A DNA stretch of 64,000 nucleotides, taken from IMG/VR virus record IMGVR_UViG_3300047319_000185, positions 1 through 64,000 of that record. One strand, given 5' to 3'. The position numbers were made by a program, and so were the translations under genes. The notes beneath the pieces were generated by a model, which made no database searches, was not told the DNA's origin, and saw only the letters and a program-made list of their open reading frames with translations. Positions 1,714 to 20,958 of the stretch are shown one piece after another (within the stretch, counting starts at the first letter, position 1; every line of letters starts with the position of its first letter). This DNA comes from a virus.

Positions 1714-2202
1714 CTAAGTGTTGTACTTGTCGTTCCGTCCCTCAAGACTACTACGGGAAGTTCTACGAGTCAACTCTCTGGATACTGCCTTACCACAGGA
1801 TTCTAAGTGGTTATATATAGCCTTAATCTGATCAGCAAAAGACTCAGAAACTATGAGAGCATAGTCCATCTCTTGAACTTCAGGTTCCAGGGCAACCAGA
1901 GCCTTCGTTTCAGAAACAGTCTTCGCTTTCTTTTGAACTGTGTACTTATCTGTAACAGCCTGTAGTTTACGGGTAGACATTCTAACATCAATAACAGCAA
2001 CTGCCACCTGATATCCGGCATACCCGGTCCAGCTAGTAAACTCACTGAGCAATTCCATCAATTCTCGGTCAGGAAGGTCTGCTAATCCTGCCGGAAGTTC
2101 TGGCTGGCCTTCCAATGGTCTCTGAGGTGCTCTCAGTCCCACTTGGTCTAACTTCTGCTGAGGTGTCCCCCAACCGCTCTGCACTGGACTTCTCTGCGCC
2201 AT
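1714..2202 (-). CDS. putative UvsY-like recombination mediator
   Basis: All-helical ~160-aa protein ending AVSRELTRR; sits downstream of RecA, resolvase and exonuclease; start set at ATG 2202. Confidence 0.5.
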   Translation of the reverse strand: MAQRSPVQSGWGTPQQKLDQVGLRAPQRPLEGQPELPAGLADLPDRELMELLSEFTSWTGYAGYQVAVAVIDVRMSTRKLQAVTDKYTVQKKAKTVSETKALVALEPEVQEMDYALIVSESFADQIKAIYNHLESCGKAVSRELTRRTSRSSLEGRNDKYNT

Positions 2203-3097
2203 AACTCTCACAATCTTTACAACTAGAACCAGTAGAACATTCTGGTGGAGACATAGTGTTGTCAAGCGCCCCAATAATGAAATAGGCTTGTGTAAACAAG
2301 CTATCGCAGAAATTAGGATCGAACTTGACTACGAATTCCTTGACTCCCTGGTTGAACTTTGCTTCATAAATGAAGATGATCTGAGTATAGGGAAGTCCCA
2401 TAAGATCACACAGTCGTAGATAAAGCTGTCCCTGACGAAGATGGGAAGGGAAAGGTTCCTTTATATCCTTCCAGAGACCCTGAAGGTCGATCTTCTGACC
2501 ATCTGTATTGGCCTTGTAGATATCAGGTGCCTCTATTCTAACCGTACCAGCACCCACGGACTTAATTTCGATAAGAGCGTCCAGATGTGGAACAGCACCA
2601 TCTGCATGACCTGCAATAAGATACTGTTCTGCCCGCAAAGGAACCTCGGCATATGTATAGCCTACACGGCTCTTGCATGAGGGACAGCGCTCATCATAAT
2701 AGAAATTGTTCTTGACTGTATAGTCGCATTCCATACAGTTCCAGTTACCCCAGAGAACTCCCATGGCTTCCAGTCGGGACTGCCACTTGGTGTGGATCAT
2801 GTGTCCCTCATCAAAGATGTTGAGGAGCTGGACACCTATATTCTCAGGTGCCTTCAGATAGGGGTTGTCTGCCTCTCTGCAAGCCTTGATGCGAAGGTAG
2901 GTACTTCTGGGACACCAGCCTGTCTTGGCCATCTCAGAAGGGTGTATGATGTCCTGTCGTCTATTAGAAGGACGAGAATGTGCCTTTATCATATGCTGCT
3001 GAATACTTCCAAGAAGAATAGTATCCTTTGCTGCATTTGCATAGTTGGCCATGCGTCCAGTTAGTTTCGGTCCCCAGCCACTGCTGATTGCTGCCAA
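2069..3097 (-). CDS. Cas4-like PD-(D/E)XK exonuclease
   Basis: HPSE..CPR, GHMIH, GHADG..IEIKS, QGQLY motifs, C-terminal C-x5-C-x2-C, inserted CxxC..CxxC ribbon; likely TTG start at 3097 after GAAAGGA. Confidence 0.85.
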   Translation of the reverse strand: MAAISSGWGPKLTGRMANYANAAKDTILLGSIQQHMIKAHSRPSNRRQDIIHPSEMAKTGWCPRSTYLRIKACREADNPYLKAPENIGVQLLNIFDEGHMIHTKWQSRLEAMGVLWGNWNCMECDYTVKNNFYYDERCPSCKSRVGYTYAEVPLRAEQYLIAGHADGAVPHLDALIEIKSVGAGTVRIEAPDIYKANTDGQKIDLQGLWKDIKEPFPSHLRQGQLYLRLCDLMGLPYTQIIFIYEAKFNQGVKEFVVKFDPNFCDSLFTQAYFIIGALDNTMSPPECSTGSSCKDCESYGAEKSSAERLGDTSAEVRPSGTESTSETIGRPARTSGRISRPS

Positions 3098-3399
3098 AGC
3101 TTTCGTTCCTTTCTCAGTTTCGCACGTTCTTCCGGACTCATTCCACCCCATACTCCATAGCGCTCATTGTTCGTCATTGCGAACTCCAAGCAGCTTTCCA
3201 GTAAAGGACAGGGCTTTCCGTCATACGTACCTAAGCAAATGTTCTTTGCATCTTCTGTCTCACTATAGTCAGGTTCATCCTCTGAATCCGAATCACTATA
3301 CCAAGGGTCGTTTCCTCTTGTTGCAGGAAAGGACACACACTTGGCCTGTCTATTAGGATCATCGCTGAACCATGCGGGTGCAACACTACGTAGTTTCAT
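3061..3399 (-). CDS. whiB: WhiB-family transcription factor
   Basis: Four Cys plus GVWGG motif (ERYGVWGGMSPEERAKL); start likely 3399. Confidence 0.93.
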   Translation of the reverse strand: MKLRSVAPAWFSDDPNRQAKCVSFPATRGNDPWYSDSDSEDEPDYSETEDAKNICLGTYDGKPCPLLESCLEFAMTNNERYGVWGGMSPEERAKLRKERKLWQQSAVAGDRN

Positions 3400-3718
3400 T
3401 ACCACTAAAGCCAACCTTTTCGCGTAGTTCAAGATAGTCATCCTTGGACATGATTACCCAAGAATTACCACTGGTCTTGAACTCTACCATAAAGATCGGA
3501 ATTCGTCCATCCATAAGCGCTTGGTTATAGTTCTTCTCTAGTTCCGCATCCTTTAGTGGGTACGATTTGGCCGAAGTTATCTTTAATTCGAATAGTTCGT
3601 CCTCTGTCCGTACATCACTCTTTCTAATCCATCCATTTCCTGAGCCAGAATTGACAGATCCGCCAAGCTCCTTAGCAAGGCGGATCTCCTGTCTCTGGCT
3701 GTCTTTGGTATCAGCCAT
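3386..3718 (-). CDS. Holliday junction resolvase (Hjc-like)
   Basis: E..LAK..GG, SGSG..KSDV, FELK motifs. Confidence 0.8.
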   Translation of the reverse strand: MADTKDSQRQEIRLAKELGGSVNSGSGNGWIRKSDVRTEDELFELKITSAKSYPLKDAELEKNYNQALMDGRIPIFMVEFKTSGNSWVIMSKDDYLELREKVGFSGNETT

Positions 3719-3725
3719 GTGTTCC

Positions 3726-3899
3726 TTAAGAAATAGTAATAAAGTCGTGGGTTTTTACATCCACATTAACAGCCTCATAGTCATACGTACCAGCAGTACA
3801 GTCACAACCACCGGCACCACAAAAACGCTCTAGCTGAATACGAACCTCCTTGTTCATGTCTTCCTTCTCCAGCAGAGCAATCAACTGATGTACCAGCAT
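3726..3899 (-). CDS. hypothetical protein
   Basis: MLVHQLIALLEK... after GAGGA RBS; CxxxxCxC motif. Confidence 0.6.
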   Translation of the reverse strand: MLVHQLIALLEKEDMNKEVRIQLERFCGAGGCDCTAGTYDYEAVNVDVKTHDFITIS

Positions 3900-3926
3900 T
3901 TCTTTTCCTCTCTGCGTGTCCAATAA

Positions 3927-3948
3927 GGCTCCGGATTCCTCCGGAACC
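3927..3948 (-). terminator. GNRA-capped hairpin (terminator or processing site)
   Basis: minus strand GGTTCCGGA-GGAA-TCCGGAGCC followed by TTATT. Confidence 0.5.
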
Positions 3949-3955
3949 ATACAAG

Positions 3956-4246
3956 CTACTCAGCCTCAGTAAACTCGTCCGCAACAACAGTCTTCTTACG
4001 GAAAACCAGTCGGAACGTGTCCTTGATAACACCCACACCAAATCGCAGACCACTCATGATAGGCCACAGCGAAATAGCCAGTGAACGGTACCAGATACAA
4101 AGCAGAAGTCCTAGGTCATTACCAAACTTCTCTCGGTAGTCATCCATACTCATACCACGCTCCATTACAAAGTCAGCAGTGTGAGCCATTCCAATAGCGT
4201 AGAAAATACATGCGATAACCACGCCAGCAATCTCCCAGCCGTTCAT
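3956..4246 (-). CDS. membrane protein
   Basis: Two hydrophobic segments; start MNGWEI after GAGGAGAAGG. Confidence 0.7.
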   Translation of the reverse strand: MNGWEIAGVVIACIFYAIGMAHTADFVMERGMSMDDYREKFGNDLGLLLCIWYRSLAISLWPIMSGLRFGVGVIKDTFRLVFRKKTVVADEFTEAE

Positions 4247-4264
4247 TTCCTTCTCCTCTTCTAA

Positions 4265-4336
4265 GTGACCAGCAAGACCAGGGGACTTTCCGATATGCCT
4301 AAACGCTACGGCAGTACCCCTGACCAAGCTAGTTAC
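4265..4336 (-). other. 72-nt structured intergenic RNA element
   Basis: Nested stems GTaACTAGC/GCTGGTcAC, GGTCAGGGG/CCCCTGGTC and TGCC/GGCA; the G-U pairs form only on the minus strand. Confidence 0.55.
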
Positions 4337-4615
4337 TCAGCTGTTGAACCACTTGTATGCAACTGTAATGATTGCGTCAGCATACTTTCGATCAAGTTCC
4401 TGAACCTCAGGGGAAAGATCACCAAAAGGAATCAGTGACTTGTGATCCGGACGAATCGGGTTCTTCCATACGGACCAGGCATCATGCACATCCCTCAGCG
4501 TGGTATTCACACCCTGAACCAGAACCAGCAGAGAATACAGATCAAGAAGATCCTCATCAATTCCTGGTAGTTCCTTCCGTAGCATATCCCGTACCTGGTT
4601 TACATAGTTAGTCAC
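4337..4615 (-). CDS. RyR-domain-like small protein
   Basis: HDAW....HKSLIPFGDLS.EVQELDR resembles the RyR repeat motif. Confidence 0.55.
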   Translation of the reverse strand: MTNYVNQVRDMLRKELPGIDEDLLDLYSLLVLVQGVNTTLRDVHDAWSVWKNPIRPDHKSLIPFGDLSPEVQELDRKYADAIITVAYKWFNS

Positions 4616-5223
4616 TTAACAGCCTCCCACTTGTGAATGGTGTCGCCCTCTAAAAGGACCTTGTAGCTTGCGTTCAGCTCCCGAAGGTACACTACCATGC
4701 CCTCTGCCTTCCAGCCAAGCATAGCCTTTGAGCCGTGCTTGGTCAAGTCATCCCGAAGTGCAGGTAGATCAAGATCATAGAATGATCCAGCAAACAGAGT
4801 AGGAACGATGTACAGATTGGGAACAGTAGAGAGTGCCTCAGTAGGATGAAGGATCTCGTTCCAACGAGGGGCATTGAAGAGACTGAATCGCTTCTCTTTC
4901 AGACCATACCCGCGCTGAATTCCAGAACCCCACCACTCACCGTAATGGTCACCAGGACCAAGGATGTCAATAAGTTCTGCCGCATTCTCGTCAACCCACT
5001 TAGCAAATCCGAAATTGTCACCTTGCTTGGTCGGCTGAAGGAAACGACTACGAGATTGCGCCCATACCACGTATCCATCTAGGATACCCAGACAATCAGT
5101 GCGGTCGATCTCATCATATGCTGGACGAATACGAATACAGGAATTGGAACCATCAATCTTCTCAGTGACAGTTGCACGCTCCTTGCTCATGCGTGGGATA
5201 CTGGGCCACTTCTGAAATTCCAT
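4612..5223 (-). CDS. RNA ligase (Rnl2-like nucleotidyltransferase domain)
   Basis: TEKIDGSN (KxDG motif I), SR, YGEW, F.LF, EGMVV motifs. Confidence 0.85.
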   Translation of the reverse strand: MEFQKWPSIPRMSKERATVTEKIDGSNSCIRIRPAYDEIDRTDCLGILDGYVVWAQSRSRFLQPTKQGDNFGFAKWVDENAAELIDILGPGDHYGEWWGSGIQRGYGLKEKRFSLFNAPRWNEILHPTEALSTVPNLYIVPTLFAGSFYDLDLPALRDDLTKHGSKAMLGWKAEGMVVYLRELNASYKVLLEGDTIHKWEAVK

Positions 5224-5242
5224 TGTGGTATATACCTCCGAT

Positions 5243-5419
5243 TTAGTAGCTGTTCAGTGCAGACAGTGCAATGGCTCCATCAATAGGATTCAGATGTCCT
5301 CTGCGAATACCCTGATGAATGGATACCCTCAGGCTGTCAATGTCCTCTTGACTAAGGTCAAGGTATAAAAGAATATCCAGAGCATTCTCAGCCTCTTGTA
5401 CTGCATACTCATAGTTCAT
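5243..5419 (-). CDS. small hypothetical protein (58 aa)
   Basis: GGAG RBS then MNYEYAVQEAENALDILL...; not in ORF track. Confidence 0.55.
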   Translation of the reverse strand: MNYEYAVQEAENALDILLYLDLSQEDIDSLRVSIHQGIRRGHLNPIDGAIALSALNSY

Positions 5420-5443
5420 TTAGTACTCCAGATTAGTAGTGTC

Positions 5444-5833
5444 TTACTGTGGTGTCAAGTATGGTGCCAGAATCACTGTAAGATCAGCAGTTGATCCCAG
5501 AGTGTGGGGAATCTGTACACCCTTTGTTGTTCTGGTCAGATTGGTGATGCGTTCTTCAACAATATAAGTGAAGCCTTGTGGAAACAGCTCAGTATTGTCT
5601 GTGCAAGGCAGAGTAATGCTGAATGTTCCTGGACCACTGCTGTTAGGAGATCCTCCCAGAGTTCCAGGAAGTACAGCTTCTATTGGAGGAACTGTCAGGA
5701 ATTGTGCGTCGACTCCATCTGACAGAACAGGGAGAGACGGAATGAATGTAACTGTACCCGTCTCTCCTGCTCCAGAGATAAAGTTTATGTACCGACCAGT
5801 AACCACAATAGTTCTTGCGCCTGTTATGCTCAT
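5444..5833 (-). CDS. hypothetical protein resembling the N-terminal domain of actinophage minor tail proteins
   Basis: GTVTF.P...GTFSITLP.TDN..L.PQGFTY.VEE pattern, beta-rich. Confidence 0.55.
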   Translation of the reverse strand: MSITGARTIVVTGRYINFISGAGETGTVTFIPSLPVLSDGVDAQFLTVPPIEAVLPGTLGGSPNSSGPGTFSITLPCTDNTELFPQGFTYIVEERITNLTRTTKGVQIPHTLGSTADLTVILAPYLTPQ

Positions 5834-6333
5834 GCTTTTCTCTTCTCTAAAAACTCTCCGAGCCAGCTCGTTACAGCATTTAACTCAGCGTATGAATATT
5901 TATCTTTAATAATATTAGCTCTTAAACTAATAACTGCAATGTTACCTGGAATATAGCCTAGCTCAGGTATTACCTTATCCAGGGATGGTGAACTGTCTCC
6001 CTGTTTGCCCTCGTTATGCCGCAGTTTTATGCCTAAAATAGGACATGTTTTTGGAACTATAATATCGGACACAGCTATAGTGAAAGGTGTACCTTCCCTT
6101 GTGGCTCTCTGCTTAGCAGATTTGTAAAGTCTAAGCTCTGAAGACATTTCCCTATGCCGCTTTACCGCTTCAGGGCGGGCGCAGTACTTACATCTACTGG
6201 CCCGCCCAAAAGGAGCACCAAGCCGCTTATGAAATTCTTCAAGAGATTTTATATCTTTACAGCCAGTACATTTTCTGTAACCATCTGGCCATGAATCAAA
6301 CTCTTCTTGAGAAAAGACAAAACGATTAGGCAT
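5830..6333 (-). CDS. HNH-type homing endonuclease
   Basis: CxxC..F..CxxC N-terminus, CPILG..SLDK..GYIPGNIAVIS..AN..K; AT-rich; directly after recA. Confidence 0.85.
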   Translation of the reverse strand: MPNRFVFSQEEFDSWPDGYRKCTGCKDIKSLEEFHKRLGAPFGRASRCKYCARPEAVKRHREMSSELRLYKSAKQRATREGTPFTIAVSDIIVPKTCPILGIKLRHNEGKQGDSSPSLDKVIPELGYIPGNIAVISLRANIIKDKYSYAELNAVTSWLGEFLEKRKA

Positions 6334-6336
6334 AGA

Positions 6337-7389
6337 CTAGTCCTTTGCGGTAGCTCTTTCAAGAGTCGCATCAGCGATCTCTTTCTGTAGCTCAATGTTA
6401 CCGCGAAGGTCTTCCACCATTGAATCTCTACCCTGCCACTTGAACTCTTCGTTGTCAAGTGAGGTGTAGTTGAACCATGCGCCTGCTCTCCTGATGACCT
6501 TGAATACAACAGCCATGGTGATAGTATCACGAAGCATGTCATAGTCACCAGGCTTGAATCCCTTGGCACTGTTCTCAAAGTACATGTCAGCAACAGCAGT
6601 CTTCTGTGGTGCCCCAGCCTTGTTCTTGGTGATCAAGTACTTGACTGTCTGTCCTACCTTGACCTTGCCCAGACCATCAACAGACTCTTCAATCCAGTCA
6701 TCTCTGCCGATCTTCACACGCTGGTAGAACTGATAGTTCTTTGCCTTTCCACCAGGCTCCGTAGTAGGGGTTCCGTAAGGGGAAAAGCCACCGATCTTAT
6801 CGCGGAACTGATTGATGAAGAATCCTACGTAAGGACGGTCATCACTATAGGTATCAGGAATCTTACGGAAGAACTGTCCTACTCGTCTTGCTCCGCCACC
6901 AACAGTAAATCCGTCCATTTCCTTATCCGATTCATCACTTGCAATCAGCGCAGGATATGAATCAAGAACAATGGCATCAAAGACATTCTCACGTCCTGCA
7001 TCAAGGATCTCCTGAAAACAGAGTTCCATATTGTTGTGCTCGAATACTTCTACTCTGTTGTTGTCAACACCATGAGCTTCTGCCCATTCAGGGTTGTAGG
7101 GTTCAGATGCTACCCAGAATGCAGAATAGTTCTTGTCCTTCGCCTGATTGACTGCAATAGTATGCAGAACAGTCGTAGTCTTGCTGGCACTGGATTCCCC
7201 GACTATCTCAATCCATCTGTTAGTAGGCCAACCTCCACCTAAAGCCACATCTAGAGACAGAATTCCAGAAGTCTGGCGTGGTGGAACATAGATTTCACTG
7301 GCACTGATAAGAGGCTTCAAGCCCTTCTTTACAAGAGCCTTGTTCTGCTTTTCCCTGAATAACTTTAACTTCTGTGCCTGGTCTTCCAT
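6337..7389 (-). CDS. recA: RecA/UvsX-like recombinase
   Basis: SGILSLDVALGGGWP, EIVGESSASKTT, IVLDS, FINQFRDKIG, EPGGKA. Confidence 0.95.
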   Translation of the reverse strand: MEDQAQKLKLFREKQNKALVKKGLKPLISASEIYVPPRQTSGILSLDVALGGGWPTNRWIEIVGESSASKTTTVLHTIAVNQAKDKNYSAFWVASEPYNPEWAEAHGVDNNRVEVFEHNNMELCFQEILDAGRENVFDAIVLDSYPALIASDESDKEMDGFTVGGGARRVGQFFRKIPDTYSDDRPYVGFFINQFRDKIGGFSPYGTPTTEPGGKAKNYQFYQRVKIGRDDWIEESVDGLGKVKVGQTVKYLITKNKAGAPQKTAVADMYFENSAKGFKPGDYDMLRDTITMAVVFKVIRRAGAWFNYTSLDNEEFKWQGRDSMVEDLRGNIELQKEIADATLERATAKD

Positions 7390-7407
7390 ACATCTCCCAT
7401 AAATAGA

Positions 7408-7446
7408 GGAAGGGACTGATAGATGTTGAGTCTATCAGTCCCTTCC
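7408..7446. terminator. perfect 16-bp hairpin upstream of recA
   Basis: GGAAGGGACTGATAGA-N7-TCTATCAGTCCCTTCC. Confidence 0.7.
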
Positions 7447-7454
7447 GACACTGT

Positions 7455-7691
7455 CTAGTCCTGCGAATCAAAGTACTCTTGTGCGTTCTTCTTGAAAATT
7501 GCTGTAGATTTTGCTTCCTTCCAGTACTCGACGTGAATCAACACAACAAGTACTACGGAAAGCACAGTAGCCACATAACTTGAGAGCGCATACAGTGAGG
7601 TATACGCACCAGTCTGCACAACCTGGTGATCCCAGTAGGCTGCCGCAGTGGGATAGACAATAGTACGGAACCAAAGCATGAACCTAGTCAT
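7455..7691 (-). CDS. membrane protein
   Basis: MTRFMLWFRTIV..., hydrophobic segments, overlaps the stop of the upstream gene. Confidence 0.55.
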   Translation of the reverse strand: MTRFMLWFRTIVYPTAAAYWDHQVVQTGAYTSLYALSSYVATVLSVVLVVLIHVEYWKEAKSTAIFKKNAQEYFDSQD

Positions 7692-7878
7692 TACTACCAC
7701 CCGTCTCAGCCCAGATACCTGACACAAGCGCCATGGCTACCAGAAAGCCCACTACACTCCAGGAGTATGTGCTCGAACCCTTACTAAGGCTCATTACGAT
7801 ACCGAATCCTGCCCCTGAAGCAGAGACGCGGGAGATAAAACGTAGTGTTGAAACCTTGATGCCCCTTGCTGCCTTCAT
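7684..7878 (-). CDS. small membrane protein
   Basis: MKAARG... TAATG-coupled to HNH stop; two hydrophobic helices. Confidence 0.55.
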   Translation of the reverse strand: MKAARGIKVSTLRFISRVSASGAGFGIVMSLSKGSSTYSWSVVGFLVAMALVSGIWAETGGSND

Positions 7879-8183
7879 TAGCGGCATACCACCTTGTCTC
7901 TGCGGTTACGGTCAATCTTCTTGAGTGTCTTACTACTGGGCTTTTCATACCAGTAGTTGTTGAACTCTACCCGACCAGTCGTATTCGACTTTACCGAGTT
8001 GCACCAGATGTGCGACAGCTGTAGATTTTCCATATCATCACTGCCTCCCCTGGAAACAGGCTTGATATGATCTACATTGCAGTCACGGATATCCGCAAAT
8101 CTGAAACAGATCTGACAGATACCTTCATCCCTCAGATACAGTTCATGCAGAACCCGCATTCCCATACCATGATGGCCGGTCAC
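7878..8183 (-). CDS. HNH endonuclease
   Basis: RDEGICQIC..VDHIKPVSRGGSDDMENLQLSHIWCNSVKS. Confidence 0.92.
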   Translation of the reverse strand: MTGHHGMGMRVLHELYLRDEGICQICFRFADIRDCNVDHIKPVSRGGSDDMENLQLSHIWCNSVKSNTTGRVEFNNYWYEKPSSKTLKKIDRNRRDKVVCR

Positions 8184-8192
8184 TTCTTCCTC

Positions 8193-10121
8193 CTACACTA
8201 GGTCTACTGTTTCACAACCTCCATCAGCAGAGCAAGCCAGTGTCTGTGACCCTACAGTCTGGTCGTACAGTTCATACCAACTCAGCTCTTCCCAAGGGAG
8301 ATCGTCTGGCATCTGCGATACTAGTTCCTCATACTGTGCCTTGTCAACACTCTCGTAAGGAGCCTGCTGATAGACATGATCGGAGTACGGAAGGAAGGCT
8401 ACACCAGACAGTTCATCAAAGTGTTCCCAGACCCATGCTGCTGTAGGCAGCCATTCGTTCTCCTGAACAGTTATCGTAACAGAGGGCTTGTGCTCTGTCC
8501 AGTGACGCTGATAGGTAAGCCAGAGATCCAAGTGATCTACTGCTCCCAGATCCTTGCGTGTCAGTGCGCCTTCTGGTGCCTTGACTGGGAAGGAGAATAC
8601 CATAGTCGCATCCGGATTGGTTACGTCATCCTCATGTGGGACTCCGAAGTCAACCATAAGACGAGTAAGAGGGTCCTTCTTATCAGCTCTGACTCTGCGA
8701 ATGTAGTAGTCATCATGCCAAGGATGCATTCCACTTGCCACATTTGCAAGCTGAGAAGTAGTTCCTTCAGGTTTTACACAGGTTACTGCCGCAGAAGGAT
8801 TGATACCCATCTGCTGAGACATACTTCTATTGGTAACGACTGCTTGTTCGCGCAGTTTGTCTAGCCATTCCTCCAATAGCTCCTGTCCTGCACTACCATT
8901 CAGTACAGGATGGCCCAGTTGTCCGGTCATGGATACACCTAGAAGTCTTTCTGCTTCCGTATTCTCCTTCCAGATAGGGCGGAGATAGCTGAAGTCAGTA
9001 AGAGTAGACTGCCAGGTTCCAAAGGCAGTTGCAGCAACTACTTTGTCCATCAAATCGCGGAGAGTATCTTCTGCCTGGACAATTACTGTGGAAAGGTTGC
9101 AGAACTGATAAGGTCTGAGAATAATTTCGGAGCAAGGATTTGTTCCATAATCGATATCGGAACTTCTACGTCCATACTTACTGGCCTGATTTCTTGAAGC
9201 CTCTCGGTTGAAGATACCTCTCTCACCAGACTTGGAATCATAGATATTTCTCCACTCCTCCATGAACTCAGACTGTGAGGGACGACTATTGTACACTGCG
9301 GAAATGTTACAGAGTGCTCTGTATCCATGGTCCTTCCACCATTCTCCTGACTTTGCATTTGCCAGCTCCTTGTCATCGAAATCAGTCAGCCCAATCAAAG
9401 CAGCACGTCTGACTCCGCCAACAACTACAACGCTGGCAATCTTGCATACGATGTCAAAGACCTCAAGAGATGTCAACTGACGTCCTTGTGCAGCATTGAA
9501 CTTGTCAGAGACGAAAACAAACAGATCTTCCAAGGGTTCCGGCCCGCTAGAACGTCCCCCAAACGTCTTTAAACGGCTGCCTGCGGGACGAACAGCGCTG
9601 GTATCCCACTCCGGGTAGAAACCCTTGTACAAGGACGTTACAAGCTCTCTCAGAGCCTTGGCCCAACCCTCTTTGGAATCCTCTACAGTAATAATTCCAT
9701 GGTCTCCGGAATACCATGTCTTTTCTACAATAGGTAGTTTCTCTACATACATATTCTCTACAGAGAAACCTACTCCTGTTCCATTCATAAGAATATAAAG
9801 TAATTCGTCAAATGCTTCTACGCTATCCATAGGAAGATAGCTGCAATTGTAACCAGCAATGTGGCTACGTTCCAGTGCTGGACCAGCAGTCATCAGAGCA
9901 CGCATGGAGCCAAGTGCCTCCAGGTTTACAAACTTCTCCCTTAGAAAAGGGAGAGCGCCCTTAGCGTCTACCTTGTAGTTGTCCTCAATATGCTGTGCCA
10001 TGTAATTCAGGTAACGATCTGTGCTCTCTTCCCAGGATTCTCTACGTTGCTTAGCATCATCCCAGCGGGCGTATCTACTAATTGCGATAAAGGATTGATA
10101 GGGGCTCATCTTTACTGTCAT
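8193..10121 (-). CDS. nrdJ: class II (AdoCbl-dependent) ribonucleotide reductase
   Basis: YNC, GTGVGF, GGVRRAA, TNPCSEI, FCNL, VKPEGT, C-terminal CSADGGC; no NrdB/F gene nearby. Confidence 0.93.
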   Translation of the reverse strand: MTVKMSPYQSFIAISRYARWDDAKQRRESWEESTDRYLNYMAQHIEDNYKVDAKGALPFLREKFVNLEALGSMRALMTAGPALERSHIAGYNCSYLPMDSVEAFDELLYILMNGTGVGFSVENMYVEKLPIVEKTWYSGDHGIITVEDSKEGWAKALRELVTSLYKGFYPEWDTSAVRPAGSRLKTFGGRSSGPEPLEDLFVFVSDKFNAAQGRQLTSLEVFDIVCKIASVVVVGGVRRAALIGLTDFDDKELANAKSGEWWKDHGYRALCNISAVYNSRPSQSEFMEEWRNIYDSKSGERGIFNREASRNQASKYGRRSSDIDYGTNPCSEIILRPYQFCNLSTVIVQAEDTLRDLMDKVVAATAFGTWQSTLTDFSYLRPIWKENTEAERLLGVSMTGQLGHPVLNGSAGQELLEEWLDKLREQAVVTNRSMSQQMGINPSAAVTCVKPEGTTSQLANVASGMHPWHDDYYIRRVRADKKDPLTRLMVDFGVPHEDDVTNPDATMVFSFPVKAPEGALTRKDLGAVDHLDLWLTYQRHWTEHKPSVTITVQENEWLPTAAWVWEHFDELSGVAFLPYSDHVYQQAPYESVDKAQYEELVSQMPDDLPWEELSWYELYDQTVGSQTLACSADGGCETVDLV

Positions 10122-11125: not shown

Positions 11126-11127
11126 AT

Positions 11128-13199: not shown

Positions 13200-13212
13200 T
13201 CTATTACATATA
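13200..13212 (-). promoter_or_regulatory. candidate phage promoter motif TATATGTAATAGA (copy upstream of polA)
   Basis: Exact 13-bp match to 60364..60376; both intergenic. Confidence 0.5.
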
Positions 13213-13243
13213 CTTCCTACTTCTTGTTGCCTGGTTAGTACCA

Positions 13244-13492: not shown

Positions 13493-13493
13493 T

Positions 13494-13757: not shown

Positions 13758-13774
13758 TGTATCCTCCAATGTAA

Positions 13775-13823
13775 GAAGCCCCTCTGACCTGTCTTGTAGG
13801 AACAACAGTATCAGAGGGGCTTC
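13775..13823. terminator. 13-bp inverted repeat downstream of SSB gene
   Basis: GAAGCCCCTCTGA ... TCAGAGGGGCTTC. Confidence 0.6.
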
Positions 13824-13830
13824 GGTGTGT

Positions 13831-13860
13831 CTAGCTGCGCGATCTAGCTACGCGATCTAG
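13831..13860. repeat. 13-bp tandem repeat (2.3 copies)
   Basis: CTAGCTGCGCGAT CTAGCTACGCGAT CTAG overlapping the SSB stop. Confidence 0.7.
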
Positions 13861-14594
13861 TTGCTGGCACGCTTTGCTGGCTTGTCAGAATCCTGGAAGG
13901 GAACGTTGGCAAGGAACTGGATAGTAGGAATGAAGATGATCTCTTCACCATACACCTCAAGAGCACGCTCAGCAAGATCAGACTCAGTCAGAGGCTGGAT
14001 TCCATAGTCGTCTTCCAAGTCACGAGCCTTCAGAGGAAGGACACGAGTAGCAGGAGCATCACGGTTCGGAAGCTTCTCATGGTAGACGTGGAAGTAACGG
14101 TCATCAGAATTCAGAGCCCAGTAGTCGCCCTGAGGATTCTCAGTAAGGGACTGGAGAGCAGTGGACACCTCGTTGCCGAATACCCATGCTACAACCTTGT
14201 CAGGGTCCTCAATAAGGTCCACAACGTTCATGACATAGGACTGAGAGCGACGAAGACCCTCAGCACACAGTGGGCAGTCACCCTGAAAGAACTCATCATT
14301 CAGGCAGGTGTAGTACTTACCCTTGGGACCAGCGGACTTGATGTAGTGGCGACCATACTTCACAGCAGGAACCTCATCAAGGATCTTTACAATACGCTTA
14401 CCCTTACCGCCGAGAACAAGGGACTCAAACTTTGCAGTCTCACGTCGCTCAGGAACAGGCGCACCCCAACCAGCACTAACGGCTGTGACATTACGGGACA
14501 TCCTACGGGAAGGAACAGGGTCGACACTGTCAGCATCGTTGTAGTGATTGTCATCAGTAGTGTCAGAAACAGGGACACGGGAAATCTTTGCCAT
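13857..14594 (-). CDS. ssDNA-binding protein (T4 gp32-like)
   Basis: Disordered acidic N-terminus, VKIL..RHY..YTC..DCPLC zinc site, replication context. Confidence 0.7.
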   Translation of the reverse strand: MAKISRVPVSDTTDDNHYNDADSVDPVPSRRMSRNVTAVSAGWGAPVPERRETAKFESLVLGGKGKRIVKILDEVPAVKYGRHYIKSAGPKGKYYTCLNDEFFQGDCPLCAEGLRRSQSYVMNVVDLIEDPDKVVAWVFGNEVSTALQSLTENPQGDYWALNSDDRYFHVYHEKLPNRDAPATRVLPLKARDLEDDYGIQPLTESDLAERALEVYGEEIIFIPTIQFLANVPFQDSDKPAKRASN

Positions 14595-14631
14595 TTATAC
14601 TCCTAGTATGGACTAATTGGGGGAGTTGATA

Positions 14632-14982
14632 TTAGGGGAGTTCAATTTGATGCGCCAGTGTCTTGTCATTCTTGCGCGCATCTGCAATAGAACGATACCA
14701 CTTCAGGTCTGGAATCATGACAGCATCAATAGCATCGTTCAGTACATCCAGAACTTCGGCCATAGTAACACCAGGTGTGATGGATACCTTGGCGGAAGAA
14801 AAAGTGTCAAGGTGCTCATAGTTTCCTACGTTGACACGCATACCTCGGGAAGCGGTTACCTCAATCAGTGTAACACCTGAGGGTGACACTACCTTTTCTG
14901 CTGTGAACGTAGGCTCTGGAAGAGGCTGTGTGCTCTCTGTTGAAACTTCGTCTCGGATAGTCGGTTGCCTTTTTGCGGCCAC
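14632..14982 (-). CDS. hypothetical protein
   Basis: AAGGAG RBS plus GTG; VNVGNYEH motif common in phage proteins. Confidence 0.7.
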   Translation of the reverse strand: MAAKRQPTIRDEVSTESTQPLPEPTFTAEKVVSPSGVTLIEVTASRGMRVNVGNYEHLDTFSSAKVSITPGVTMAEVLDVLNDAIDAVMIPDLKWYRSIADARKNDKTLAHQIELP

Positions 14983-15329
14983 AATACTCCTTCGGTTTTT
15001 GCAATCTCGACAAGTCCCTCAACCATATCACGTGTGTACATGCGACGTCTACCATTCGGCGTGGATGAGGGTTTTACGTAAGGCGACTTGGGAAGGATAC
15101 CATCTGTCTCCCACTTGCGCAAGGTTATTGGACTACGATTTCCTAGTGCCTTGCCAAGGTGGCCGATGGAGAAGAACTCTTGTTCAACGCCACCGACCGT
15201 GAAGATAAAAGGCTTGGAGTCCCAATCGTCTATAACCTTTTCCTGGACCTTACGAATACTCTCGAATTCAAGTGGAGTAGTCGATCCAGGAAAGACTTTA
15301 CTCAATTGTTCTTGCCATGAAGTAGCCAT
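14889..15329 (-). CDS. MerR-like helix-turn-helix DNA-binding protein
   Basis: FSIGHLGKALGNRSPITLRKWETDGILP...RRMYT. Confidence 0.85.
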   Translation of the reverse strand: MATSWQEQLSKVFPGSTTPLEFESIRKVQEKVIDDWDSKPFIFTVGGVEQEFFSIGHLGKALGNRSPITLRKWETDGILPKSPYVKPSSTPNGRRRMYTRDMVEGLVEIAKTEGVLWPQKGNRLSETKFQQRAHSLFQSLRSQQKR

Positions 15330-15335
15330 ATATTC

Positions 15336-15842
15336 CTATTCGTGCTCGTGCTCGAATTGGACAACACGAGTAGGAGTAACAACTACCTGAGTATGGTCAC
15401 CGAAAGCGCTCATCATTGCAAGCTCATAAGCACCATCCTGAATACTCAGATCTGGCCAGTCCTTAATGGCAATACCATCAGGGTGAGGATAGTCAGTCTT
15501 ACTGTAAGAAGAGTACCAGGGCTTCTGGTAGTCGTAGAAACCACCCTCGCGACCCATTTCCTCATCATTAATATCCTCAGTGTCAGGGTAATCATCCTGC
15601 AACCAGGAAGCCGCTACTCGATCACTAGTGGTGACATAGTAGTCTCCCACACTGAACTCACAGACATCACCATCATTGAAGTACGGAGTGTACTGCTGCC
15701 ACGTAATAGCCTTTACACCAGAAGCGAATGCCTTCTGAAACTCCTCATGCAGATCCTGAATAGGACGCTGCGTTACATACTCACGGCGACGGTCATAGAA
15801 GTCTCCCTCAATAGGGATACCCATGAAACTACGGTCAGACAT
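15336..15842 (-). CDS. hypothetical protein
   Basis: Start MSDRSF coupled to upstream stop; WQQYTPYFNDGDVCEF motif. Confidence 0.75.
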   Translation of the reverse strand: MSDRSFMGIPIEGDFYDRRREYVTQRPIQDLHEEFQKAFASGVKAITWQQYTPYFNDGDVCEFSVGDYYVTTSDRVAASWLQDDYPDTEDINDEEMGREGGFYDYQKPWYSSYSKTDYPHPDGIAIKDWPDLSIQDGAYELAMMSAFGDHTQVVVTPTRVVQFEHEHE

Positions 15843-16212
15843 TCTTACTCCCGAATATAGAATCGAAACTTCCAACTTCCTTGCGTACTGCTCCTGACAT
15901 CCACTTCTCCAGAGGCATACCCTTGATGTAATCTGCTGGGCTTGGAAGCCATCCCAGATCCTCAATGATATGACGCTCTGCAATCTCCCTCACAGGAACC
16001 TGAATAGTCTTGTGAGACTTCTCAATGGTCAGTGTCTTGCCGAAGATTGTCTGGCAAAGAAATACACCAAGAGTGTGGTGGTAGACAGAACGATGACGTG
16101 AATCACCTATTACCTGCTTACTAGAATCTATGAACTCTTCTATTGGAAGGTAATCTTCTGGTGTGCCTCCGTACTTATGGGAGGCAGAGACAGCATGGTA
16201 CCAACTGTTCAC
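15835..16212 (-). CDS. His-rich conserved protein (DUF6915-like)
   Basis: YHA.S...YGG..EDY.PI..FIDSSK...D.RHR..YHH..G...AERHI.EDLG..P. Confidence 0.7.
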   Translation of the reverse strand: MNSWYHAVSASHKYGGTPEDYLPIEEFIDSSKQVIGDSRHRSVYHHTLGVFLCQTIFGKTLTIEKSHKTIQVPVREIAERHIIEDLGWLPSPADYIKGMPLEKWMSGAVRKEVGSFDSIFGSKNV

Positions 16213-16400
16213 AGAATCTCAGCCTTGTAAAACTTGTGCTCCTTCTTGAAGTACTTGTACAGAGCCTCACTGAACTCATAATCACCACGAGACTCGTCAA
16301 TATCCTGCACAAACTGTACAAGAGTCTCTTCATCAAGCTCCATAGCCAGAGCATCAGCCAGTACAGTAAGGTCAATCACAGAAGTAACCCGGAGATCCAT
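16209..16400 (-). CDS. hypothetical protein
   Basis: 63 aa, translationally coupled. Confidence 0.65.
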   Translation of the reverse strand: MDLRVTSVIDLTVLADALAMELDEETLVQFVQDIDESRGDYEFSEALYKYFKKEHKFYKAEIL

Positions 16401-16675
16401 TAAACGTCTACCTCAATCCAATCGTATCTAACAACAGGGAGTTTAACAACTTCAGTGGCTACAATAACATCATCATAGTTCCAGGGGTCCTCTTCCTGCA
16501 TCTCAGTAGCAGGTTCTGTAAATGACACCAGGTAGTTCTTCCCCTCAAACTCAAACACACCAGTCCGAATGCTGTACCAGCGTCTGTCTTCAATATGTTC
16601 GATATCAGTCAGCTCGTATGGATAGTCATTCTCTTCCATAAATTCTCTGGTGAATTCACGAGTTACCTTAGCCAT
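16400..16675 (-). CDS. hypothetical protein
   Basis: 91 aa; RW..I..VF..ATEMQE motif. Confidence 0.7.
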   Translation of the reverse strand: MAKVTREFTREFMEENDYPYELTDIEHIEDRRWYSIRTGVFEFEGKNYLVSFTEPATEMQEEDPWNYDDVIVATEVVKLPVVRYDWIEVDV

Positions 16676-16955
16676 CTACATCAACCCAATTCATTCGGCC
16701 AACGAATTCGTAACCCCACTCATCAGTACCCTCAATGTTAAAGGGCACACTGACAGAGTATGCGGTCAACTTCTGAACAGTGAAAGTCTTTGCCCTATCA
16801 CTACTCCACCAGCCGTCTCCAGTAAGACGAGTGCCCTGAGACTTAGCCTTTCCGTAAGTATCATAGGGACCAAGCTTCTCTACTACCTTGCGCTCAGAAT
16901 CGAAAGTAGTCACTCTGAAGAATTCATCGTCATCTTCTACAAAACATCTAGCCAT
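16668..16955 (-). CDS. hypothetical protein
   Basis: 95 aa; GPY motif; GAGGAG RBS. Confidence 0.7.
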   Translation of the reverse strand: MARCFVEDDDEFFRVTTFDSERKVVEKLGPYDTYGKAKSQGTRLTGDGWWSSDRAKTFTVQKLTAYSVSVPFNIEGTDEWGYEFVGRMNWVDVDG

Positions 16956-17014
16956 ATTGCTCCTCTAATAGACCATACCCGCAACCCTGTAAACAGGGGT
17001 ACGAGTAAAACTTA

Positions 17015-17359
17015 TTAGCGATGAGTCGTGGTAGTACGGGTGCGAGTAGTTGTGGTGTGTGTAGTACTCTTCGGAGTCTTGGTCAGAGAAGTACCACCAG
17101 TAGTCTTCTTAGTGGTAGTCGTGGTATGCGTAGTGGTCACAGTGTGGTGAGAAGGGTTGGCAAACATGCTGCTATGAGCATGGTAGTAGCTACTAGTGAC
17201 ATGAACCGTGCGAGGAGTCGGGTAGTAGATGAACACATGCTGAGGAGTGTAGTAACCATACTCTACCTCCGTCATATCTCCGCCACTTCCACAAGCAGCA
17301 ACACCAGTAAACATAGCGCCAGCAACGACAAGGCCAGCAAGCTTACGGTTGATCTTCAA
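17015..17359 (-). CDS. lipoprotein with Thr/His-rich tail
   Basis: Basic N-terminus, hydrophobic core, lipobox VAAC. Confidence 0.75.
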   Translation of the reverse strand: MKINRKLAGLVVAGAMFTGVAACGSGGDMTEVEYGYYTPQHVFIYYPTPRTVHVTSSYYHAHSSMFANPSHHTVTTTHTTTTTKKTTGGTSLTKTPKSTTHTTTTRTRTTTTHR

Positions 17360-17377
17360 AACTACTCCTTCAGAGTA

Positions 17378-17848
17378 TTAGACTTTGGTCGGGCTGAATG
17401 CCCAGGTTTCCGTTACATCGAACACACTATCGTACTCTTCATCACTCAGCAAGTCCTGAGCAAACAAGTCCCACAGAGCATCATGATCAATGTGTTCTAT
17501 CGTGATGACAGCTCTACGGTAAGGTGCATGGAAAACAGATATTCCAGCATCAGGCTGTGCACAAGACCACTCTACAGCCTTGTCATCAAGCAGTTCAAGT
17601 GCTCGTTCCTCATTGAGGAGCTTACTCTGCTTTCGGACCTTCTGCAACTCCTTGTACCGCACTCCGTGGATCTCAAGCGGTGTCTCGAACCCTATCACAT
17701 GAGAACCTCTGGCGTTAGTAGCAGCCTCTTGGAGGTACGGTTCCAGTTCATCCTTGACACGTTCCTGCATAGCCTTGAGATCAGCGATCTCCTTCTTTAA
17801 TAGAAGGTACTGGGAAACCTTGGCTCTTACTGATGCATTATCAGACAT
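17378..17848 (-). CDS. hypothetical protein (N-terminal coiled coil)
   Basis: GGGAGAG RBS before ATG 17848. Confidence 0.75.
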   Translation of the reverse strand: MSDNASVRAKVSQYLLLKKEIADLKAMQERVKDELEPYLQEAATNARGSHVIGFETPLEIHGVRYKELQKVRKQSKLLNEERALELLDDKAVEWSCAQPDAGISVFHAPYRRAVITIEHIDHDALWDLFAQDLLSDEEYDSVFDVTETWAFSPTKV

Positions 17849-18407
17849 ATCTCTCCCTGGTAATAGCGATGTTGGAGTCTGTTGTACGTGACTTGCTGTT
17901 GACATACGCCAGCATGGCTTCTACATCATCAAAGGTCATCTCTCCACAAGTCACACCAGAAGACAGACGTACCTTGAAGAAAGTATCAGGACGAAGACGG
18001 AACTTTACTGTACCTGCATGACCTGCATCAGAAAGGTAGACAACAGAGCGCCATTCGTTGTTGCCGATACGGAACTGTACATTATTTCCCTCAAGAAGCT
18101 TGCTGACAGAATTGGTGGAAACAATAGTACGGCTTATGTTTATTTCCTTCCCCTCATCAATAGCACCAGCAACGAAAGCCATTACCTTGTCCTTGTTTCC
18201 CTTAACAGTCTCATTGACTGGACTGTAGCCAGTTACTGTAGCGGAGTAGGAATAGACAGGACGTACTCTGAACTGTGTACCCTGTGCAAAGGTAACACTT
18301 GCAGGAGATTCAGGACACTCCTGCCATGGGCCATAAGGGTCCTGGTTCCAGGAAGGAACTACCTGCTTAAGATCCCTGTACTCGACACCCTTGAGAAAGT
18401 TATTCAT
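17841..18407 (-). CDS. hypothetical protein with internal duplication
   Basis: Two ~95-aa halves, each with FR(V/L)RP and similar helix. Confidence 0.75.
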   Translation of the reverse strand: MNNFLKGVEYRDLKQVVPSWNQDPYGPWQECPESPASVTFAQGTQFRVRPVYSYSATVTGYSPVNETVKGNKDKVMAFVAGAIDEGKEINISRTIVSTNSVSKLLEGNNVQFRIGNNEWRSVVYLSDAGHAGTVKFRLRPDTFFKVRLSSGVTCGEMTFDDVEAMLAYVNSKSRTTDSNIAITRERYV

Positions 18408-19975
18408 TTAGACTCCAAATAGTTTTTAAGGAACTTGGTCAGACTTGTTCCTTCATCAGTAACTCTACCATCTGCTTCTGACAATCCAGTCAGCACAGCA
18501 TTACTCACTCTAGACTTATAATTCAGCCTTGTCAACTGGTACTCTTCGACGGACCCAGCGACAATGAGATTATCGATGAAGACTTTCCGGAACGTAGACG
18601 AAGCTCGTACGTGTCGTCCGTTTCGCTGCTTGAGTGCTCCAGAAGAGTTTGGTAAGTCATAGTTAACAAGGTGGCTAGCGCTCCACAAATCCACTCCATA
18701 TCCTCCGGCGTCTGAGGAGATGAAAAGTCTAGTGTCAGGTTCGTTGTTAAACCGTTCAATGGCAATTCCTCGTTCACTACCATTTAATCCTCCATGAAAT
18801 TCTACGCTGTTGTATTTGGATAAGCCATTAACCAATAAAGGAATCATTCCCCTGAATCTGGCAAAGATAATTACTTTGTGTCGGGGATCTTCCTCAAGAT
18901 ACTGTTGAGCCAGATCCGTACAGGCTTCGTACTTGGCCCCGTAGAAGCCTTCAGGGAGGTCTCTGAGGCGCTCAATGAGGTCTGAGGCATAACTGCTGCC
19001 TCCGTCGATTCCTGGGTCGTTGTAGGCGTCTCCAGAGGCTCTGAGAAGGACGGGTGAATCCAGGAGTAGGCTTGCCGCAACAAGTCTTGCTCCGATTTGG
19101 CCGAGACCACTTCCACCATCACTGCGTTGTGTTCCAGCGTAATATCCAGAAAGCTCTTGAGCTGCTGCGGGTCCAGCTGTAATGAGAGCTCGAAAGAGGT
19201 CTCTGACAATTTCGTTATAGTAAACACGTGTCTCTTCATCCATTTCTATGTAGCAATTGAATTCTTCTACGGTTGGCATGAACTCTGCCACGTCCTTGTC
19301 AGTTCTTCTCTTGGATATACATGCTTCCATAAGTCTGGTATTCAATTCAGGCATATTCTTATAGCCTACTGTGAATCCTGCTGAACTCCTGATAATATAG
19401 TTGTCCTCAAATTCCTGCCAGTTACCCAGTACAGTAGGATCAATCCACTGCATGATAGAGAACAGTTCTTCTGCCTTGCCGTTCTCAATCGGCTCTGCGG
19501 TCAAGCCAATACGATAGGTTGACTTCATTTTCTTTACTGCTTTGGTCTGCTGTGTCCCGAAGTTCTTGATGCTGGTCACTTCGTCCACCAGAATCAGTTC
19601 CGGATTCAAGGAATTGATGAAACCTAAACTGCTCACTGCCTGACGGATACCTATAATCAAATACTCTGGCCGGGTTTCCATAGCGTCTTTTAATATACTG
19701 GAGCGCTTCTTCAATGGGATAGACCCATCCACTAGGGTCACTACTGCTGCTGTGGTGAACTGTTGGATTCGTTGTTCCCATTGCTTCGTCAGCGACGCGC
19801 TCATGATAAGGACAGCACATTTTACTTTCCCTTCGTCTCTAAGTTTCTCTATTGCATGAATGGATACGATTGTCTTTCCTGTACCCAGATCCAATGCCAA
19901 GAGAGCCCGCTTCCTCTCACAAATGAGATTCGACGCGCTCTCTTGGTATGGTCTCAGCTTTCCTGTGAACGTCAT
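18404..19975 (-). CDS. SNF2-family (SF2) DNA helicase
   Basis: LRPYQ, DLGTGKT, DEV, LTAEPIEN, GGYGVDL, QRNGRHVR. Confidence 0.92.
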   Translation of the reverse strand: MTFTGKLRPYQESASNLICERKRALLALDLGTGKTIVSIHAIEKLRDEGKVKCAVLIMSASLTKQWEQRIQQFTTAAVVTLVDGSIPLKKRSSILKDAMETRPEYLIIGIRQAVSSLGFINSLNPELILVDEVTSIKNFGTQQTKAVKKMKSTYRIGLTAEPIENGKAEELFSIMQWIDPTVLGNWQEFEDNYIIRSSAGFTVGYKNMPELNTRLMEACISKRRTDKDVAEFMPTVEEFNCYIEMDEETRVYYNEIVRDLFRALITAGPAAAQELSGYYAGTQRSDGGSGLGQIGARLVAASLLLDSPVLLRASGDAYNDPGIDGGSSYASDLIERLRDLPEGFYGAKYEACTDLAQQYLEEDPRHKVIIFARFRGMIPLLVNGLSKYNSVEFHGGLNGSERGIAIERFNNEPDTRLFISSDAGGYGVDLWSASHLVNYDLPNSSGALKQRNGRHVRASSTFRKVFIDNLIVAGSVEEYQLTRLNYKSRVSNAVLTGLSEADGRVTDEGTSLTKFLKNYLESK

Positions 19976-20958
19976 AACCGATATCTTACCATCGATTTCG
20001 CGTTTAGGACAGCCTTCTGTATATCGTTGTCAGTAACTCCTTCGGTACCCAGATCCTTTGCATGTGGAATATGAGAGTAGTCTACGAATTTGATTCTCTT
20101 TCCACTGGTCAAGTACCTGTTCCGAAGTTCCCACATTTTATTTCTGCCTGGTTCATCATTGTCCAGTGCGAGGATGACAACCTCAGCCCTGTCAAACAAG
20201 ATATCCAGTTGTCTGTTGGAGACCTGTACACCGAAGGAGGAAACTGCTCCGTCAAGTCCCGCAGTATAGAGCCGCAGACAGTCAAGCGGACTCTCAAGAA
20301 GAATAGCTGTTGTTCCGCGCATGCAGTCTATACCGAACAGCGTATCAGATTTGGGAACTCTGGCTGGCTTATTGGAAAACCAACCAGGTCCCTTCTCCTG
20401 ATATCCCCAGAAGGTTCCGGTATCAGGATCTCTGATAGGTAGAATCCAGTTTTCGTTATCCGAATCCCACAGGACTCCGTAATGGTTTACGGCTCCCGCA
20501 GAAACTCGTCGTCCGTCCAGTGCTGAGTACGGAGGAGACGAGAAGAACGCCAGTCTAGCTTCGTTCCATGGCTGTACCCACGATTCTGACGAGACACTGT
20601 CAGAGGCAGTCGCCAGACTTCGTCGCAGTCGAGAGATTCCACCACGACTACGGACCCATTGTTCTGCGTCATGTCGATCATATCCTTTGACCTCCTGAAC
20701 TAGGTAAACGAATGAACCACTGAAACCACAACTGAAACAGGAATGATCTCCCGTTTCTACATTTACAGACCATTTATTAGGCCTGTTGTTCTCCTTGTCA
20801 AGCCTGCTCAGATGACCTGGACAGATTGCCCATGCTTCTCCATGAGTCAATCGGGTAACCTGTATACCCAGTTCTTCCAAGCAAGCTATCACATCTCCGG
20901 GAACTGGAGTTGTCTTACTGGCTGCCCAACCCTTAGTAAGGGGTTTCGTAACCTTCAT
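19972..20958 (-). CDS. DNA primase (CHC2 zinc finger plus TOPRIM)
   Basis: CPGH..CFSC, LLESPLD, ALDNDEPG, AKD. Confidence 0.92.
   Translation of the reverse strand: MKVTKPLTKGWAASKTTPVPGDVIACLEELGIQVTRLTHGEAWAICPGHLSRLDKENNRPNKWSVNVETGDHSCFSCGFSGSFVYLVQEVKGYDRHDAEQWVRSRGGISRLRRSLATASDSVSSESWVQPWNEARLAFFSSPPYSALDGRRVSAGAVNHYGVLWDSDNENWILPIRDPDTGTFWGYQEKGPGWFSNKPARVPKSDTLFGIDCMRGTTAILLESPLDCLRLYTAGLDGAVSSFGVQVSNRQLDILFDRAEVVILALDNDEPGRNKMWELRNRYLTSGKRIKFVDYSHIPHAKDLGTEGVTDNDIQKAVLNAKSMVRYRL

Follow-up and report, generated by a model that had tools for sequence, protein, structure and literature searches.

Shared terminal peptides wire small replisomes, among them the tails of phage T7, the tip of the bacterial SSB (the protein that binds single-stranded DNA), and PIP boxes. 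The T7 and bacterial SSB tails are C-terminal, acidic, and Phe-ended, and in bacteria it is the SSB that carries the peptide, with the pockets belonging to its partners. RPA-binding motifs (those of UNG2, XPA, and RAD52 on RPA32C) and PIP boxes allow unrelated DNA enzymes to dock by one short motif, and in Ago-hooks a Trp inserts into a protein pocket. We know of no partner protein of phage T4 that copies the N-terminal peptide of the T4 SSB, gp32. T4 gp32 self-associates via the LAST motif (KRKST) at its extreme N-terminus, and its partners bind the acidic C-terminal domain (PMC12893549). Here we describe a Gly-Trp (GW) motif near the N-termini of an SSB and three other proteins encoded by positions 1 to 64,000 of the IMG/VR virus record IMGVR_UViG_3300047319_000185 (hereafter the window). 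It covers the first 64 kb of the genome (112,630 bp) of a large Streptomyces-type phage and has a G+C content of ~46%; the replication genes of the window are located on the minus strand.

The GW peptide is a real, selected short linear motif that is conserved at the protein level and is found on four unrelated folds handling single-stranded DNA (ssDNA). Direct translation gave VSAGWGAP in the SSB, VQSGWGTP in a UvsY-like recombination helper, ISSGWGPK in a Cas4-like exonuclease, and LTKGWAAS in a DnaG-type primase, in agreement with a previous sequence-only reading of this DNA, which had reported the same motif on these four proteins. All four copies are on the minus strand: Gly42-Trp43-Gly44 of the SSB at 14463..14471 (from translation and alignments), Ser-Gly-Trp-Gly of the UvsY-like protein (residues 9-12) at 2167..2178, Ser-Gly-Trp-Gly of the exonuclease (residues 6-9) at 3071..3082, and Gly10-Trp11-Ala12 of the primase at 20923..20931. 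The positions reported previously were correct for the first three and one base off for the primase (20924-20932). The results below establish the motif, its conservation, its position, and its translated status, together with its predicted disorder. Literature searches found no description of such a Gly-Trp motif.

Compared with the T7 gp2.5/gp4 tails and the bacterial SSB tip DDDIPF, the GW motif is likewise a terminal peptide shared by an SSB and enzymes, or linked to a hub (PMC9917605). Unlike these tails, it is N-terminal and Trp-based, has neutral or basic flanks, and is present on the partners too; it does not have the make-up of an acidic-aromatic tail. The likeness to RPA-binding motifs and PIP boxes is that unrelated enzymes carry a common short motif, but those motifs are eukaryotic, helical, and of different sequences, and the hub itself lacks the motif. 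GW/WG Ago-hooks (GW182 and viral suppressors) also have a Gly/Ser-flanked Trp in a disordered region. However, they are eukaryotic, repeated, and Argonaute-binding, whereas here each protein has a single copy and there is no Argonaute. Among the peptides that wire small replisomes, the GW motif would be a new one: N-terminal, Trp-based, non-acidic, and carried by both the SSB and its clients. The motif bears on how a primase, a nuclease, and a recombination mediator reach SSB-coated DNA in these phages.

The nearest cultured relatives of the phage are the Streptomyces phages BRock, GiJojo, Alone3, LuckySocke, and pSt2308, which have the same gene order and 30-60% protein identity; tblastn searches against cultured phages found no cultured relatives beyond this BRock group. 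In addition, ~20 uncultured relatives were obtained from IMG/VR, six of which read as complete genomes (101-113 kb). Conservation was assessed in alignments of stop-to-stop open reading frames (ORFs) from 13 to ~25 genomes per family. Among the ~20 related genomes, each of the four families has an invariant or nearly invariant G-W, and the expectation that the motif would be kept in orthologues with otherwise variable N-termini was confirmed for each of them. The alignments also extend the motif beyond GW to a core common to all four families, hydrophobic-[S/Q/T]-[S/K/N]-G-W, with examples such as VSSGW in the SSB, ISSGW in the exonuclease, V/IQSGW in the UvsY-like protein, and VSS/NGW in the primase. 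Trp is followed by Gly in both the SSB and the exonuclease and by either Gly or Leu in the UvsY-like protein; in the primase, this position is free. The motif had previously been named GWG; the Gly-Trp part of this name stands, but the common core is not GWG. The Gly codons do differ between copies, as had been noted (GGT/GGC and GGT/GGA/GGG), and all four nucleotides are used at the third base across relatives. Because the Gly third bases vary freely, selection acts on the protein, and we reject a nucleotide-level signal.

Plain GWG is not enriched genome-wide (5 seen vs. 3.1 expected). Among the 17 conserved GW sites found in 106 gene families, the four motif sites are those with the four lowest flank conservations (flank identity 0.35-0.44, vs. 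0.53-0.94 at the other conserved GW sites). When the six-frame ORFs of seven genomes were scanned with the regular expression [VILFM][STQ][STKNQRA]GW, matches were found in the four families (three or all four per genome) and in a few short or opposite-strand ORFs; no other plausible gene has the extended motif in these scans, whose pattern was made post hoc and hence provides no independent test. Structural proteins lack the motif, as had been expected. True translation starts lie upstream of every motif, also as claimed: those of the SSB and the primase are both annotated and conserved, and those of the other two proteins are considered below. According to AlphaFold2 predictions with family alignments for the SSB and the exonuclease, the peptides precede the folded domains.

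The SSB (13857..14594, minus strand; 245 aa) is a zinc protein of the gp32 fold with a disordered N-terminal region. Its core has the gp32 architecture according to Foldseek (E=2e-5, probability 1.0, TM 0.45-0.55), with matches to the T4 and RB69 gp32 cores (1gpc and 2a1k) and to 8gme. Alignment with T4 gp32 by hhalign gave 81.7%, and the match to the Pfam gp32 family is weak (18.4 bits, under the cut-off). One His and three Cys form the zinc site (H83, C97, C107, and C110; invariant in the alignments), with a spacing close to that of the T4 ligands, which we take to be H64, C77, C87, and C90. The G-W-G of this protein is invariant in 33 homologues, down to 26% identity. A profile search expanded the family to 764 clusters at 50% identity, from which 142 representatives of at least 200 residues each were used for statistics. 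Trp is present in 134 of the 142 (Phe in three) and the preceding Gly in 136, with S, R, K, or G found at position -2 and V, I, or L at position -4. The Trp is located 38-46 residues before the zinc-ligand His in all but one of the representatives (median 41, SD 1.9), and its distance to the N-terminus ranges from 9 to 187 residues (SD 33). These patterns make GW a hallmark of this gp32-fold SSB family, which is almost unstudied, comprises at least 764 sequence clusters, and is represented in culture by the BRock group alone.

The extreme N-terminus of the SSB, MAKISRVPV (14568..14594, minus strand), is basic and Ser/Thr-rich, with M1, R6, and V9 conserved. Across the family, Arg makes up 28% and Ser/Thr 17% of the first ten positions (e.g., MAKISRTRV and MPRTLTRRR in relatives). 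This stretch resembles the T4 LAST cooperativity motif and, judging from its composition, may have a similar role. The order of elements is therefore a LAST-like tip, a variable charged linker, the fixed GW arm, the gp32 core, and a short basic C-terminal end; residues 1-44 have pLDDT <50 in the AlphaFold2 model. No acidic C-terminal partner-binding (A) domain was found in the SSB, which has a short, basic C-terminus (ending in DKPAKRASN in the window; family consensus DLPQKR), and the acidic stretch is located in the N-terminal linker. In the family as a whole (764 clusters), a charged low-complexity N-terminal linker, from very short to ~180 residues, is found in place of the acidic C-terminal domain, and the short basic end D-L-P-Q-K-R is typical of the clade of the window.

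In comparison with T4 gp32, the SSB shares the gp32 fold and has a short N-terminal peptide beside the core, which in both proteins may contact the neighbouring SSB on ssDNA (PMC12893549). However, the T4 peptide is basic and lacks Gly-Trp. Moreover, the SSB of the window has no acidic C-terminal domain, and its LAST-like stretch and GW arm are two elements. The sequence-only reading had invoked T4 as a precedent. It was right that an N-terminal peptide of gp32 mediates self-association; the partners bind the acidic C-terminal domain (PMC12893549). It had also proposed GW as the self-association peptide of the SSB. This is not supported by the findings above, in which the LAST-like N-terminus is a separate element and the variable linker lies between it and GW, which is fixed relative to the core His. 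As for T4 gp32 itself, residues 21-31 include K-G-F where the B domain meets the core, and G-E-W two residues ahead of the first core strand. Gly22-Phe23 or Trp31 as a degenerate counterpart of GW is a lead only, and the hhalign alignment starts at T4 Leu33.

The exonuclease (2069..3097, minus strand; 342 aa) is a Cas4-like PD-(D/E)xK enzyme that starts with TTG at 3095-3097. It matches phrog_2506 (1.6e-44) and, by Foldseek with probability 1.0, the structures 4ic1 (Cas4 SSO0001), 3slp, and 3syy, which indicates a Cas4/lambda exonuclease-type fold. Together with this fold, a putative Cys cluster of one N-terminal and three C-terminal residues is apparent in the alignments (C62 and C293 invariant, C287 and C296 nearly so). 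A conserved TTG/ATG start with a Shine-Dalgarno sequence is found a few codons before GW in 12 of 13 genomes. In most genomes, owing to an upstream stop, the nearest start is the conserved TTG (some isolates have ATG), preceded by AAGGA/GGAGG; the exception is G009, in which the sole start is an ATG 16 codons upstream. Among 80 database homologues whose called start precedes the first helix, G-W is found in 79 (three of them with G-F), the Trp is at residue 5-11 in most, and the majority begin with MAxIxxGWGPKL. Based on the conserved start position and these homologue calls, the start of the exonuclease in the window is therefore TTG 3095-3097. The longest ORF (from ATG 3151) and the annotated 306-residue exonuclease of BRock (L002 6064-7143) probably have wrong starts. 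The Trp is located 44±0.9 residues before the HPSE motif. Residues 1-10 are predicted by AlphaFold2 to be coil (mean pLDDT 55), and a helix is predicted at residues 14-22. A WhiB-like gene (3061-3441) overlaps the exonuclease start.

The UvsY-like recombination helper has a long form of 162 aa that starts with MAQRSP (1714..2202, minus strand). Its start residue (M; V in one genome) and the pattern M-A-x-R..Q-x-G-W are conserved in 13 genomes. The protein is small and helical. Searches for the UvsY family (PF11056) and other matches gave no Pfam, PHROG, or PDB sequence match, and in a protein atlas the nearest cluster (0.95) has a UvsY label on 12% of its members, which is a weak lead only. 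G-W is invariant in this protein; the third base of the Gly codon before Trp takes four nucleotides, and TGG is fixed. Its N-terminal tail lies in another reading frame over the 3' tail of the exonuclease gene, in an overlap of 134 nt (2069..2202, minus strand) that covers the first ~45 UvsY-like codons, and both frames are open in all 13 genomes. In the second conserved island of the overlap, substitutions synonymous in only the UvsY-like frame number 524, vs. 254 synonymous in only the exonuclease frame. The overlapped exonuclease tail (residues 302-341) has pLDDT <50 in the AlphaFold2 model and is predicted to be disordered. The annotated GiJojo gp151, BRock gp66, and Alone3 gp162, as well as most metagenome calls, are short forms of 114/115 residues without the conserved tail. 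The gene starts thus require correction, as the long UvsY-like form and the exonuclease TTG were missed in several GenBank records and most metagenome calls. Within the tail, residues 20-50 include two other islands of conservation, G-L-[RK]-A-P-x-[RQ]-P and L-P-x-G-L-S-D-L-P-D-x-x-L-M, which may likewise serve in docking, with the neighbouring exonuclease and the RecA-like protein as conceivable partners.

The primase (19972..20958, minus strand; 328 aa) consists of a zinc ribbon and a Toprim domain. The Toprim_2 match is well above the cut-off (1.6e-10, 41.6 bits vs. 22.1), and the protein matches phrog_47 (8e-26). Zn_ribbon_DnaG scores 17.8 bits, under its cut-off of 24.9, and the C/H pattern of the ribbon is conserved, in line with a DnaG-type primase. 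G-W is present in 12 relatives (R-W in two isolates) and five genomes of a sister clade. The Trp lies 5-8 residues before P-x-P-G-D/N-V, a segment that leads into the zinc ribbon.

The sister clade comprises high-GC phages of ~100-110 kb that were reached via distant exonuclease homologues. It keeps GW in the SSB (GGRGWGSYEK), the UvsY-like protein (MTRAVARKGWEAVQ), and the primase (MVRAKAKGWDAVG), whereas its exonuclease lacks GW. The motif is thus retained at 30-45% identity. Position -2 is Lys/Arg in most sister-clade copies and Ser in the close relatives of the window, in the SSB and most partners alike. Two of the sister-clade records, G013 and G014, are classified as proviruses by IMG/VR, yet are ~100-105 kb long and share the replication module.

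Our results favour one ligand shared by the four copies, for which the SSB core is the leading candidate. As the most likely mechanism, we tentatively propose that GW peptides dock on this core. In the motif, hydrophobic-[S/Q]-[S/K/N]-Gly-Trp comes after a few residues that are basic or Ser/Thr. It forms a fixed arm directly ahead of the core in the gp32-type SSB and lies within 5-12 residues of the N-terminus in the primase, the exonuclease, and the UvsY-like helper. The Trp, with its small flanking residues, would insert into a single site shared by all copies on the filament of SSB-coated ssDNA, namely the spot on a neighbouring SSB core that receives the SSB's own GW arm. By replacing an SSB arm, the three enzymes would be recruited to, or hand over from, SSB-covered ssDNA. 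Several patterns argue for this mechanism. Four unrelated folds have the same motif in their N-terminal tails, where it is kept from clade to clade as islands in variable flanks, with synonymous codon variation and predicted disorder, and among plausible genes only these four families have it. Motifs that insert a Trp into a pocket usually have Gly/Ser on either side of it. Position -2 shifts together between clades on the SSB and most partners, and the partner tails resemble a compressed SSB N-terminal region, with basic Ser/Thr residues and then GW. In addition, each of the four carriers acts on ssDNA, and it is well established that enzymes of this kind usually have the SSB as their hub (PMC9917605). 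A precedent is that the T4 gp32 cooperativity peptide also abuts the core (PMC12893549). Of the previous interpretation that the partners mimic the SSB, a conserved protein-level N-terminal motif is retained, and the identity with a T4-style self-association peptide is not. A more specific version, which we consider unlikely at present, is an "inverted SSB hub" in this large, mostly uncultured phage group: a pocket on the SSB core would normally hold the Gly-Trp arm of a neighbour, and the copies on the primase, the mediator, and the end-resection nuclease would displace or cap the SSB and take over the ssDNA. If true, this would be a competitive hand-off code of five residues.

Other observations weigh against docking on the SSB core. 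AlphaFold2 left the SSB's own GW arm undocked on the core (pLDDT <50), and the separate LAST-like N-terminus is possibly the true cooperativity element of the protein. In the sister clade, GW[D/E]A[V/I] is common to the primase and the UvsY-like protein, and the SSB has GWGSY. In three carriers, a short and constant spacing separates the motif from a DNA-binding domain, and this would suit an arm acting on DNA in cis equally well. A complex prediction of the SSB core (residues 46-245) with the UvsY-like tail (residues 1-50) scored 0.03 vs. a mark of 0.32; it was run without controls and provides no evidence either way. Direct contact with DNA is an equally consistent alternative. Under this explanation, which we regard as only slightly less probable than docking on the SSB core, [S/K]-G-W and its basic neighbours would hook ssDNA directly, binding the backbone or bases without sequence preference and in cis, with no protein receptor. 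Every carrier acts on ssDNA, and classical peptide work found that Lys-Trp-Lys peptides favour ssDNA. Most copies have S/K/R/N/T at position -2, residues that can all bind phosphate, and G and W are invariant. The spacing of GW to the adjacent domain is also fixed (41±2 residues to the core His of the SSB, 44±0.9 to HPSE of the exonuclease, and 5-8 to the pre-ribbon segment of the primase). A structural parallel, which likewise weighs against docking on the SSB core, is the ssDNA deaminase toxin SsdA (BaDTF2), an ssDNA-specific protein with an identical Ser-Gly-Trp in which Gly and Trp are invariant; in the crystal structure with ssDNA, this motif clamps the backbone, with Ser300 on the phosphates, Gly301 in a Gly-only conformation, and Trp302 packing against deoxyriboses (PMC12494967). 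The stretch sGWGakkee of the SSB profile aligns to this motif, although not significantly (E=0.22, 60 residues). The match is at chance level and indicates no homology, and the likeness is an analogy only, as the SGW of SsdA is within a loop of the folded deaminase domain and not in a disordered tail. No deaminase fold with a zinc triad was found in the SSB, as the 60-residue alignment is at chance level and the core is a gp32 fold. Against a direct hook, moreover, the acidic residues that follow Trp in the sister-clade primase and UvsY-like protein (GWDAV, GWEAV) look suited to a protein pocket, the UvsY-like motif is distant from the helical domain, within a multi-motif tail of 45 residues, and the other ssDNA-binding proteins of the phage (RecA-like protein, helicases, and polymerase) lack the motif.

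Alternatively, the SSB and the three enzymes may all plug GW into one replisome or host protein, such as the PolA-type polymerase or the DnaB-like helicase. A precedent for such a use of SSB and primase-helicase tails comes from T7, in which gp2.5 and gp4 have acidic tails with common sites on the polymerase. Judging from its size and Pfam matches, the 328-aa primase seems to lack a DnaG-type C-terminal helicase-binding domain and would thus need another tether. The GW[DE]AV shared by the sister-clade primase and UvsY-like protein, from which the SSB differs, would also fit a third protein. Nevertheless, we consider this explanation improbable: no candidate receptor emerged, neither an exonuclease nor a recombination mediator is an expected client of a helicase or a polymerase, and the SSB copy across 764 clusters would demand an equally universal partner. 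Because the SSB copy marks the whole 764-cluster family, parsimony favours an always-present receptor, either the SSB core or ssDNA, over a third protein. It is still less probable that the four copies have no common function and instead reflect unrelated local roles (helix capping or packing onto the own domain), coincidence, or a nucleotide or translation signal near gene starts. This explanation would agree with the lack of enrichment of plain GWG in the proteome, with the definition of the extended pattern after the four copies had been seen, and with the free residue after Trp in the primase. However, it does not account for why the four sites of lowest flank conservation among the 17 are all in ssDNA enzymes, nor for the hydrophobic-S-S-G-W flank common to the copies. 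The free third base of the Gly codons points to constraint on the protein, and the retention of the motif in the sister clade, with no other plausible gene having it, is also difficult to explain by coincidence.

Several other GW-containing sites of the window were considered and rejected. Those conserved near the N-termini of the Holliday-junction resolvase (3386-3718), the RecA-like protein (6337-7389), and the genes at 48314-49021, 49893-50345, and 63481-63777 are embedded in well-conserved folded sequence and are not the motif, and the GVWGG of the WhiB-like protein is the usual WhiB turn. The protein encoded upstream of the DnaC-like loader gene (26247..26633, minus strand) had been suggested as a weak fifth match based on SPGAWGD. 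Its relatives do not conserve AWG but [IFL]W-D-D-L-W-G-S-P-E-E, and membership is ruled out because the conserved element is a different, acidic one, W-x-D-L-W-G/D. In its own right, this protein has a conserved acidic-aromatic N-terminal peptide, GAWGDLWDD in the window, that is distinct from the Gly-Trp motif.

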